From contig CP011216.1 of assembly GCA_001029795.1 (NCBI GenBank), positions 70,903 to 134,902 of the forward strand: a DNA stretch of 64,000 bases. The letters are read 5' to 3'. Numbering within the stretch: the stretch's first letter is position 1; every line of letters begins with the position of its first letter. Below the pieces are notes generated by a model. The model had not been told where the DNA came from and ran no database searches. It saw only the letters and a program-made list of their open reading frames with translations. A program made the translations under genes and the position numbers. Shown here in pieces: positions 6,178-44,103 of this stretch. This DNA is from a candidate division Kazan bacterium GW2011_GWA1_50_15. Its GTDB lineage: Bacteria > Patescibacteriota > Kazan-3B-28.

Positions 6178-6263
6178 GCCGAGGTTCCCGAGTGGTCAAA
6201 GGGAGCAGACTGTAAATCTGTTGGCGCAAGCCTTCGTAGGTTCGAATCCTACCCTCGGCACCA
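6178..6263 (+). tRNA. tRNA-Tyr (anticodon GUA) with long variable arm
   Basis: Acceptor GCCGAGG/CCTCGGC, anticodon loop CTGTAAA, long variable arm, GGTTCGAATCC, encoded CCA. Confidence 0.85.
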
Positions 6264-6341: not shown

Positions 6342-6617
6342 ATGTACTATGTGTATGTCTTGCAAAGTAAGACCGACCGAGATTTTTATATTGGCTTTAT
6401 TCAAGACATTAAACGCAGGTTGTATGAACATAAGGTAGGTAAAAATGTTTCGACCAAGAGCAGGGGCCCTTGGACACTAATATATTTCGAAGGGTTTATT
6501 GATAAGTTTGATGCATTGCGTCGTGAGAGCTATATGAAGATAACAAAGGGACATGCTATGTTGAAGATGATTTTAAGGGAATATCTATTAAAGCAAGCCG
6601 GAGTAGCTCAACGGTAG
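6342..6617 (+). CDS. GIY-YIG domain protein (UPF0213 / YhbQ-like small nuclease)
   Basis: YYVYVLQS...FYIGFIQDIKRRLYEH...RESYMKI match GIY-YIG motifs. The last ~7 codons overlap the 5' end of the downstream tRNA-Thr. Confidence 0.6.
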   Translation: MYYVYVLQSKTDRDFYIGFIQDIKRRLYEHKVGKNVSTKSRGPWTLIYFEGFIDKFDALRRESYMKITKGHAMLKMILREYLLKQAGVAQR

Positions 6618-6671
6618 AGCAACGCTTTTGTAAAGCGAAGGTTGGGGGTTCGATTCCTCTCTCCGGCTCCA
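6597..6671 (+). tRNA. tRNA-Thr (anticodon UGU)
   Basis: Acceptor GCCGGAG/CTCCGGC, D stem GCTC/GAGC, anticodon loop TTTGTAA, GGGTTCGATTCC, encoded CCA. The A27-A43 mismatch makes the anticodon assignment moderately uncertain. Confidence 0.65.
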
Positions 6672-6837
6672 TGTCGTCAAAATGGACTCGCCTTGACACT
6701 GGCTTAACTAGGCTAAGCCAGCTGCTGGGGCTCGTCATTTCTCCTCTCAAAATCACAAACAGAAGCTTAGTTCGTGATTTTGGTTAAAGGGAAGCCCTGC
6801 TTGACAGCAGAGGAGGGATATTTAATAATCTCCAGGT

Positions 6838-8248: not shown

Positions 8249-8252
8249 GTTT

Positions 8253-8432
8253 TGCAACGCCTGCGCCGCGTTGCATCGGCGGCTACTTTCGTCTTGGCGA
8301 AAGTAGCCAAAGCCGTCCGCCAGTCATTCTGGCTATGAATGGAAGCAAAATTAGCTTTCTGGCTTTCGGCGAACTCGTCGTCCGTCAGCTGACGGACTTC
8401 TCAAACAACGCCTTCGCTGCACTAATTTTGCT
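8253..8432 (+). repeat. Copy 1 of oriented ~170-nt structured 3'-UTR repeat (H1 hairpin, conserved H2 hairpin CTACTTTCGTCTTGGCGAAAGTAG, CAAAGCCGT, long closed stem-loop B)
   Basis: H1 8253-8275 (TGCAACGC/GCGTTGCA), H2 8282-8307 (10 bp stem, loop TCTTGG), B closing stem 8344-8354 with 8422-8432. Homologous to copies at 11739, 25202, 38198, 49104. Confidence 0.7.
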
Positions 8433-29449: not shown

Positions 29450-29545
29450 TCTCGAGAGGGAAACGGGAGTGCGTTTCCCTCTCGACGTTCGTGGGCAAAG
29501 CCCGTTCCGGCGTAGCCGGAACGGGCTCACTGCTCTCCCTTCCAC
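29450..29545 (+). repeat. Family-2 structured 3'-UTR repeat, copy A (after rpsU stop)
   Basis: Hairpin TCTCGAGAGGGAAAC...GTTTCCCTCTCGA (stem base is the palindrome CTCTCGAGAG), then CGTTCGTGGGCAAAGCCCGTTCCGGCGTAGCCGGAACGGGCTCACTGCTCTC. Near-identical copy at 33008. Confidence 0.65.
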
Positions 29546-33007: not shown

Positions 33008-33103
33008 TCTCGAGAGAGGAACGGGGTGTGTTCCTCTCTCGACGTTCATGGGCAAAGCCCATTCCGGCTACGCCGGAACAAGCTCACTGCTCTCACCTCC
33101 ACC
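33008..33103 (+). repeat. Family-2 structured 3'-UTR repeat, copy B (after ftsZ stop)
   Basis: Hairpin TCGAGAGAGGAAC...GTTCCTCTCTCGA with compensatory changes vs copy A, then GGGCAAAGCCCATTCCGGCTACGCCGGAACAAGCTCACTGCTCTCAC. Confidence 0.65.
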
Positions 33104-37981: not shown

Positions 37982-38206
37982 ATGAGAATAAAAGTAGTGG
38001 TCGTACCCCGGTCCAGCCGCAACGCCATCGAGGAACTGCCGGATGGCAGTTTTAAAGTGTGGGTACGGGCCGTTCCAGAGAAGGGGAAGGCCAATCTGGC
38101 CGTCATTGAACTGTTGGCGCTGAATTTTCGAGTGCCCAAAACCCAAATCGAACTTATTTCTGGGCATCGAGATAAACATAAAATTTTTGAGATTTTTGAA
38201 GCGTGA
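37982..38206 (+). CDS. DUF167 (YggU-like) family protein
   Basis: IKVVVVPRSSRNAIEE...KVWVRAVPEKGKANLAVIELLA matches DUF167. Confidence 0.65.
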   Translation: MRIKVVVVPRSSRNAIEELPDGSFKVWVRAVPEKGKANLAVIELLALNFRVPKTQIELISGHRDKHKIFEIFEA

Positions 38207-38364
38207 AATGACGCTTCACCCATTGCTACTTTTGTCTTGCCAAAAGTAGCCAAAAGCGTGGCCCGCTCACCAATTGCTAACCGAAAGGCAAAATCTGCTT
38301 TCTGGCTTTCGGCAAACTCGTCGCCTTGCTCCTTAGACAGTGCCTGCGCTACGCAGATTTTGCC
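38198..38364 (+). repeat. Copy 4 of ~170-nt structured 3'-UTR repeat (H1 spans the DUF167 stop codon)
   Basis: H1 38198-38217 (GAAGCGT/ACGCTTC with TGA in the loop), H2 38225-38250 (GCTACTTTTG tcttgc CAAAAGTAGC, compensatory T-A vs C-G), CAAAAGCGT, B stem 38287-38298 with 38353-38364. Confidence 0.7.
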
Positions 38365-43654: not shown

Positions 43655-43746
43655 GGTGTTCTATAAAAATCCTCTTAATTGTACAACATTTGAAAGTTAA
43701 ACTGCTTTTGGCTATGATAGGAGACGCATTGACGGGCTTGTAGCGT

Positions 43747-43932
43747 GGGCGGTTAGCTCAGTGGTAGAGCGCTTCGTTCACACCTGCCCGCCGCATCTGG
43801 ACCCGTGGCTCAGTGGTTAGAGCGTTCGGTTCACATCCGAAAGGTCGGTGGTTCGAATCCACCCGGGTCCACCAGTGTGCTATGGCAGGCGGGTCGAAGA
43901 AGTCAGAGGTTCAAATCCTCTACCGCCCACCA
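43747..43932 (+). tRNA. tRNA-Val(CAC)-like gene interrupted at anticodon-loop position 37/38 by a 111-nt insert
   Basis: Exon 1 43747-43782 (acceptor GGGCGGT, D arm, anticodon stem CTTCG, loop TTCACA). Exon 2 43894-43932 (T, CGAAG, var AAGTC, T arm AGAGG/CCTCT, acceptor ACCGCCC, A, CCA). All four stems pair. Confidence 0.55.
43799..43874 (+). tRNA. tRNA-Val (anticodon CAC), intact, located inside the insert of the outer tRNA-Val-like gene
   Basis: Acceptor GGACCCG/CGGGTCC, D stem GCTC/GAGC, anticodon stem TTCGG/CCGAA with loop TTCACAT, T arm GGTGG TTCGAAT CCACC, encoded CCA. Confidence 0.85.
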
Positions 43933-44103
43933 CGGTTGACAGTGTTGGGGAGATGGGTTAACCTGTCCCCTGTACGCATCCCGCCATTTATTCGTGATTA
44001 ACACGGGTAAATGGTCATTCGCTCCTGGCAGATCGGGTGAGACCGGTCAGCCCCAAGAGTGATCAGCATCAAAATGGCGGGAGAGGCATAAAAGGAGAAC
44101 AGT

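Follow-up and report, generated by a model that had tools for sequence, protein, structure and literature searches.

A complete tRNA-Val(CAC) gene lies inside the anticodon loop of a second tRNA-Val(CAC) gene in an uncultured groundwater bacterium of the candidate phyla radiation, near candidate division Kazan. We posit, with a probability of roughly 60%, that this arrangement represents a recent gene replacement by nesting: the inner tRNA, cut from the transcript of the resident gene, would be the working product, and the outer gene would be disabled. All coordinates below are plus-strand positions in the window (i.e., the whole 64-kb stretch of DNA that was analysed). A full-text literature search found no published precedent for such nesting, or for the insertion of one tRNA into another, and a remark in the preliminary description of this DNA, that nothing of this sort is standard in bacteria, is correct.

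The nested unit (43747-43932) is 186 nt long and reads, from 5' to 3', as the first part of the outer tRNA-Val(CAC) (43747..43782; 36 nt, tRNA positions 1-37, GGGCGGTTAGCTCAGTGGTAGAGCGCTTCGTTCACA), a 16-nt flank (43783..43798; CCTGCCCGCCGCATCT), the inner tRNA-Val(CAC) with its encoded CCA (43799..43874; 76 nt), a 19-nt flank (43875..43893; GTGTGCTATGGCAGGCGGG), and the second part of the outer gene (43894..43932; 39 nt, positions 38-76 including CCA, TCGAAGAAGTCAGAGGTTCAAATCCTCTACCGCCCACCA). The insert, flanks and inner tRNA together, measures 111 nt, and neither flank has a second copy in the window. When 43783-43893 is removed, the joined outer exons (GGGCGGTTAGCTCAGTGGTAGAGCGCTTCGTTCACATCGAAGAAGTCAGAGGTTCAAATCCTCTACCGCCCACCA; 75 nt) are recognised by ARAGORN as tRNA-Val(cac) with all four stems paired; an uninterrupted orthologue that differs by 1 nt scores 72 bits against the Rfam tRNA model, and the two outer parts taken singly match a tRNA-Val HMM in nhmmer over columns 1-39 (E = 4e-10) and 39-76 (E = 2e-10). 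A genuine tRNA should fold as a cloverleaf whose D and T loops are conserved and whose anticodon loop has 7 nt and includes U33, and it should exceed the threshold score of the family. The inner gene does so on every count, as does the outer gene once its exons are joined; the inner gene is called by ARAGORN, and its 74 bits against RF00005 (gathering score, 29) are the highest Rfam score among the four tRNAs of the window. Examined in place, the locus yields the inner tRNA-Val(CAC) only, both with Rfam, which does not match the outer gene, and with ARAGORN, even under its intron option. The preliminary description had recommended such a search with intron detection; the outer gene goes unreported in situ because the inner gene overlaps it.

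The insert sits exactly between A37 and U38 of the outer tRNA, with junctions TTCACA/CCTGCC and GGCGGG/TCGAAG, and its boundaries cannot be moved by even 1 base. Relative to uninterrupted orthologues, 0 bases were lost and 0 were duplicated. The ends of the insert are complementary to each other: 43783-43792 pairs with 43884-43893 at 9 of 10 positions (8 Watson-Crick pairs and 1 G-U pair), for which the chance probability is ~0.007 given the composition of the flanks. Among 63 tRNA flank pairs, with a median of -5.4 kcal/mol, none has a stronger leader-trailer duplex than the inner tRNA (-21.3 kcal/mol), and the predicted fold of the 186 nt is a cloverleaf within a cloverleaf (-83.2 kcal/mol, z = -4.5). 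An insertion exact to 37/38, with pairing ends that join the exon ends, looks designed for RNA processing rather than accidental, and this counts against the reading as a simple replacement. The sequence statements of the preliminary description (a full outer cloverleaf with CCA, split after nucleotide 37 by 111 nt; a restored loop, TTCACAT, identical to that of the inner tRNA; an intact 76-nt tRNA-Val with its own CCA; and pairing of the first and last ~10 nt of the insert that extends the anticodon stem) all hold under these analyses.

Which of the two genes was there first? The order of genes at the locus is IleRS, DUF192, L21, signal peptidase (on the minus strand), the tRNA, S2, EF-Ts, RRF, UppS, RseP, and FolD. 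Judged by S2, the nearest species representative is candidate division Kazan RIFCSPHIGHO2_01_FULL_44_14 (75%), followed by Saccharibacteria (64%), and a tRNA-Val(CAC) upstream of rpsB is syntenic across candidate division Kazan and Saccharibacteria relatives. In a sister species, the S2 of which is 76% and the signal peptidase 85% identical to those of the host, the outer-type tRNA is uninterrupted and differs by one D-loop base, and the promoter region is ~97% conserved. Contigs of this sister species (L143 and L145-L148) provide the valid empty site, and uninterrupted orthologues of the outer gene were found in L143, L114, and L008, with the outer 3' part 100% identical to its orthologues. 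Because the locus is syntenic in relatives and uninterrupted in the sister species, the outer gene is the ancestral resident, and the insert is derived. The outer-type tRNA-Val is at least 90% conserved across many bacteria. The inner tRNA is 84% identical to a Saccharibacteria tRNA-Val and only 76% identical to the outer gene, and it is on this account foreign and no local duplicate. The nested allele was seen in only one population, with a divergence of at most 0.5%; searches with rpsB and lepB homologues and inspection of the contigs, the last two of which came from genomes with a different gene order, turned up no further lineage that carries the insert. Of the original suggestion of a decayed tRNA gene disrupted by a tRNA-containing segment, the disruption of a resident by a foreign tRNA is the best-supported part, based on synteny and on the eroded relics in relatives described below; the decay is not, as the outer exons are intact.

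A promoter-like site (TTGAAA-17 nt-TATGAT, 10/12 consensus matches) lies upstream of the outer gene at 43690..43718. It is the only such site on the plus strand for the nested unit, and none occurs within the insert; therefore, the inner tRNA must come from the transcript of the resident gene. In the model that we favor, the resident promoter would transcribe the entire nested unit, and the precursor would adopt the cloverleaf-inside-cloverleaf fold because the flank helix would prolong the outer anticodon stem and keep either tRNA from misfolding with the other. Cleavage by RNase P 5' of G43799, and likewise 5' of G43747, together with 3' trimming as far as the encoded CCA, would set the inner tRNA free, and this tRNA would serve as the working tRNA-Val(CAC) from the locus. 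The outer gene would yield two unjoined pieces of 52 and 58 nt; it would be a fresh pseudogene, bound to erode like the older tRNA-Val genes in relatives. Insertion into this resident gene is probably tolerated only when the insert brings its own replacement, which would account for the identical anticodon of the cargo. Decay has not yet set in, as both outer exons remain intact, but for so recent an event this intactness says little either way.

The surroundings of the gene, here and in relatives, suggest that such events are not unique to this genome. Two nucleotides upstream of the outer gene, at 43734..43744 on the plus strand, lies GGGCTTGTAGC, a relic consisting of the first 11 nt of an older, Saccharibacteria-type tRNA-Val and identical at 11 of 11 positions to the 5' end of the syntenic tRNA-Val in L009 and L010. 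The sister species has the same 5' relic and, downstream, a matching 3' relic, CAAGCCCACCA, which is the exact complement of GGGCTTG plus ACCA. There, CAAGCCCACCA closes a stretch of 85 nt after the CCA that also contains TAGAGCG, a GTCCG/CGGAC stem, and AGATC; the window is without these 85 nt, and the gap is bounded by the repeat GCCCACCA. In L137, relics stand upstream (GGACGATTAGCTCAG) and downstream (ATCGTCCACCA) of an intact tRNA. In L114, a 5' relic (GGCGAT) and an intact tRNA are followed by 21 nt and a 3' half that starts at T38 and ends in ATCGCCCACCA, so that the right-hand layout (intact tRNA, ~20 nt, 3' half from T38) is that of the window. Orphan 3' halves in L109 and L137 likewise start at HMM column 38 (~T38; E = 2e-7 and 2e-5, respectively) and are preceded by the same ATTTTTAACGGGGCAAG as in L114. 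In L188, an intact tRNA is flanked by an 8-bp inverted repeat amid other relics. A metagenome scan of 53 tRNA-Val loci found relics beside an intact gene at only two, both Kazan-like. We read these remains as signs that the locus may have been overwritten repeatedly from inside, the older copy eroding each time and the youngest layer, as yet uneroded, being that of the window, with the relics being short and some of their nhmmer E-values weak. Integrative elements lost long ago offer another explanation for the orphan 3' halves, as fragments that they displaced (PMC4383910). In L137, the orphan 3' half (oriented region ~489-563) carries in its T arm a 36-nt insertion that starts with CCTGCCCG, the same eight bases with which the insert begins at 43783-43790; this identity could be chance or could mark a shared element end.

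Could the outer gene, while no longer a decoding tRNA, still be of use? Its acceptor/T-arm half might be selected as a scaffold that aids expression of the inner tRNA, either as a handle for RNase P and CCA processing or as a clamp. Relic outer acceptor stems with ACCA enclose an intact tRNA in the sister species, in L137, and in L114; relic acceptor stems in relatives are fully complementary (7/7) in two lineages, which hints at selection on the outer helix; and each relic keeps a hairpin at the position of the T arm although the rest of the old gene is gone. Moreover, the 5' relic GGGCTTGTAGC(T) is identical between lineages whose promoters can no longer be aligned. The 85-nt segment of the sister species (L143 1244-1328; also L147 and L148) forms three perfect hairpins, its terminal CAAGCCCACCA pairs with the upstream relic GGGCTTG, and the segment is too structured to have the look of neutral decay. 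Engineered tRNA scaffolds, which carry cargo RNA at the anticodon loop via a connecting stem (PMC3753655), offer an analogue that functions in bacteria (PMC3753655). As in the nested unit, they combine a tRNA body, a connecting helix, and a folded cargo, and they rely on the tRNA's own expression and processing signals; unlike it, they are synthetic and their cargo is not meant for release, whereas here the arrangement is natural and the cargo is an RNase P substrate. However, the 3' relic of the older gene is gone from the lineage of the window itself, L109 and L187 are without a 5' relic, the sequences are too few for a covariation test, and the events may just be recent. We consider selection for a scaffold unlikely, and prefer simple replacement.

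The insert might instead be what is left of a site-specific integrative element that targeted the anticodon loop of tRNA-Val and carried a replacement tRNA beside its attachment site, the rest having been deleted. An integrase-borne island in a tRNA gene leaves direct repeats, namely, a regenerated target and a displaced fragment, and has an integrase gene at one end. Neither trait was found: no part of the outer tRNA is duplicated and no core is common to the two junctions, and the precomputed Pfam annotation of the 64-kb window includes no integrase, transposase, or recombinase. The insert has no coding capacity. In favor of such an origin, anticodon loops are classic integrase targets at which displaced tRNA fragments are left (PMC4383910), other bacteria (L088 and L095) have orphan tRNA-Val 3' halves beginning in the anticodon loop, and the 3' halves that start at T38 in L109, L114, and L137 lie beside a common ATTTTTAACGGGGCAAG. 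On the other side, tyrosine and serine recombinases require the duplicated tRNA segment or junction core that is missing here, the count of integrases in 64 kb is 0, 111 nt is far below the size of an element, and a deletion ending precisely at 37/38 would be a coincidence. In all, we regard an integrative remnant as quite unlikely. Islands and prophages of tyrosine integrases leave a regenerated target and a displaced fragment in tRNA genes (Islander, PMC4383910), and the nested unit resembles them: the incoming DNA enters a tRNA gene at the anticodon loop, a preferred sublocation, and restores function, and the orphan 3' halves of relatives resemble displaced fragments. They differ in that here function is restored by a complete second tRNA and not by the missing part, and in that the insert is only 111 nt long, without direct repeats or integrase. 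Two-step integrase scenarios were rejected, as their hybrid tRNA intermediates would carry acceptor stems that do not pair. In the unrelated bacteria L088 and L095, the orphan tRNA-Val 3' parts begin within the anticodon loop or slightly 5' of it (HMM columns 34 and 29), and in L138, also unrelated, in the D arm (column 22). None of the three has an intact gene adjoining, and such parts are what integrase-mediated insertion usually leaves behind.

The DNA ends of the insert, CCTGCCCGCC and GGCAGGCGGG, match at 8 of 10 positions, as the terminal inverted repeats of a MITE would, but a MITE would also be marked by a target-site duplication and by several copies per genome, and here there is no duplication and no other copy of the flanks in the window or in ~190 loci. 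Elements of the IS200/IS605 type have subterminal hairpins, insert 3' of a fixed target of 4-5 nt, and depend on a TnpA in the genome; the lack of a target duplication is compatible with this type, and no TnpA is present in the 64-kb window. The search for a donor of the insert or its flanks was equally negative: it yielded no further copy in the 64-kb window or the ~190 loci, none in viral contigs (five DNA patterns and a scan for loci related by rpsB), and generic tRNA similarity only in phage genomes. The matches of these patterns to viral contigs fell within phage coding sequence and were dismissed as chance. A protein search with an open frame spanning the nested region, aimed at spurious ORF calls elsewhere, was negative as well.

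We further considered that the 111-nt piece could be a new kind of bacterial tRNA-carrying intervening element for position 37/38 of tRNA-Val, either one from which both tRNAs mature or a self-compensating mobile cassette that repeatedly overwrites the resident; both forms taken together, this is improbable. A true tRNA-carrying intron, from which the inner tRNA would be released by RNase P and 3' processing, with the flanks then trimmed and the halves rejoined by a ligase of the RtcB or Rnl type so that both tRNAs mature, strikes us as quite unlikely at best. The attractions of this idea are plain: the insertion is exact at 37/38, the terminal helix sets A37 beside U38, the outer exons are intact, and the acceptor, anticodon, and flank helices would hold the outer halves together. 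Patescibacteria, moreover, are unusually rich in tRNA introns (PMC13011429). Against it, the bulge-helix-bulge motif cannot form, RNase P leaves 5'-phosphate and 3'-hydroxyl ends and the 16-nt and 19-nt tails would need exact removal, the window has neither an endonuclease nor a ligase gene, the outer genes of relatives are eroded, and conservation is limited to one population.

None of the known intron classes describes the insert. No Rfam intron or ribozyme model matches anywhere in the window at E <= 1. A group I intron has a catalytic core, P3-P9, and normally measures at least 200 nt; the insert has 111 nt, 76 of which are tRNA, and there is no Intron_gpI match at E <= 1. Under the group I boundary rule, U is the last base of the 5' exon and G the last of the intron (PMC13011429); here, the 5' exon ends in A37, while the insert does end in G. 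The initial judgement that a group I intron could not be as short as 111 nt was sound. Group II introns are six-domain ribozymes, usually with a reverse transcriptase gene; the insert has no Rfam match to one and is only 111 nt long. A bulge-helix-bulge consists of two 3-nt bulges that contain the splice sites, a 4-bp helix between them, and flanking helices. The insertion lies at the position expected for this motif, exactly 37/38, but the structure is missing: in the canonical register the central helix has 2 of 4 pairs and the outer helix 1 of 4, shifting the bulges never completes the four pairs, and the actual helix begins directly at the splice sites. The Pfam-annotated genes, which cover ~655-63737 of the 64-kb window, include neither a splicing endonuclease (EndA) nor RtcB. 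Thus, two ideas in the preliminary description, i.e., a tRNA-encoding intron with religated halves and a novel small intron, found no support in these tests, and the RtcB-type ligase that it had advised looking for did not appear among the Pfam-annotated genes of the window. Excision by RNase III was also rejected, as the helix is interrupted by a 5-nt bulge and has only ~16 bp, and as a nick in the anticodon loop would leave the tRNA unable to decode.

How does the nested unit compare with known disrupted tRNAs? The 37/38 introns of archaea and eukaryotes form a bulge-helix-bulge that is cut by the splicing endonuclease, and the exons are joined by RtcB; the archaeal tRNA-Trp intron, which carries a C/D box RNA, is an example of functional RNA as cargo. 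The nested unit shares with these introns the 37/38 position, the pairing of the insert that prolongs the anticodon stem, and a functional RNA inside, but it differs in its bacterial host, in that no bulge-helix-bulge is possible, in its cargo, a whole tRNA with the same anticodon, and in the lack of endonuclease and ligase genes in the 64-kb window. Group I introns interrupt the anticodon loops of bacterial tRNAs, those of Patescibacteria at position 35/36 (PMC13011429). The likeness is an interrupted anticodon loop in a tRNA gene of the same phylum-level group; the difference is an insert of 111 nt (76 of them tRNA), without a group I core and after a 5' exon that ends in A. Finally, the split and permuted tRNAs of Nanoarchaeum equitans, Caldivirga, and Cyanidioschyzon resemble the outer gene in consisting of two halves with complementary extensions, once the inner tRNA has been released. 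Theirs, however, are joined via a bulge-helix-bulge by archaeal enzymes, whereas here the halves belong to one transcript around another tRNA, and nothing indicates joining.

An assembly chimera of two tRNA-Val loci, which had been named as a possible refutation and which the gapped or chimeric state of several public contigs exactly here (L002, L003, L006, and L144) might suggest, is extremely improbable: four independent public assemblies, produced by different assemblers (JGI, Logan, and two from ENA; L001, L004, L141, and L186), contain the identical 186 nt, neither flank of the insert recurs in the 64-kb window, the two flanks pair together, and both junctions lie outside the sequence common to the two tRNAs (longest shared word, 9 nt), in which a chimeric join would need to fall. 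Because the four assemblies agree and the junctions lie outside shared sequence, the nested unit is not an assembly artefact.

The faulty contigs are instructive in their own right. At precisely this tRNA, MAGs and metagenome contigs in public collections have NN gaps or chimeric joins, and L002 and L003 were left out for NN gaps or foreign joins within it. L006, a candidate for an empty site in the same species, is a chimera: its tRNA and everything upstream come from the L008 species, its downstream part from the organism studied here. L144, with three differences that suggested decay of outer exon 2, is an A/B assembly chimera with the differences located at the join, and it was disregarded. 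Nested or repeated tRNA sequence can break assemblies and produce false "empty sites," and the locus shows that standard tRNA finders and assemblers mishandle nested tRNAs.

Several other features of the window and its relatives merit mention. Between tRNA-Tyr (6178-6263) and tRNA-Thr(TGT) (6597-6671) lies an AT-rich plus-strand ORF of ~90-110 aa with a GIY-YIG nuclease domain (PF01541; 6285-6617), a free-standing endonuclease-like gene within a tRNA cluster; at its 3' end, the ORF runs 21 nt into the tRNA-Thr. This tRNA-Thr is followed at 6727-6787 by a terminator-like hairpin (AAAATCRCAAAC...GTTYGYGATTTT), which recurs, with 85% identity over 61 nt, after the tRNA-Val in one sister-species variant (L145 863-923). 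Hairpin-forming intergenic repeats of ~70-80 nt occur at 8252-8321, 11736-11805, 25199-25268, and 38195-38264, and also at 29466-29545 and 33023-33102; since the region of one copy matches L008, another Kazan species, at 90% over 199 nt, small repeat elements are common to the species. The rpsB 5' leader (~43968-44103) is conserved in the host, the sister species, L189, and L114; it contains an invariant UCGCUCCUG able to pair with the GGGAGAGG region that immediately precedes the Shine-Dalgarno sequence, and, with no Rfam family match, it may be an unmodelled S2 autoregulatory leader.

Disrupted tRNA genes, whether they contain introns or are split or permuted, are central to ideas on the evolution of tRNA genes and on their resistance to mobile DNA, and the bacterial tRNA introns known to us are self-splicing only. 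Here, a bacterial tRNA gene is broken, to the exact base, at the position of archaeal and eukaryal introns, and the sole cargo is a tRNA with the same anticodon. If the outer gene were still matured, this would be the first bacterial tRNA intron that does not splice itself. If, as we posit, the event is a simple replacement, an essential tRNA gene would have been overwritten from inside without a lethal intermediate and caught before decay.
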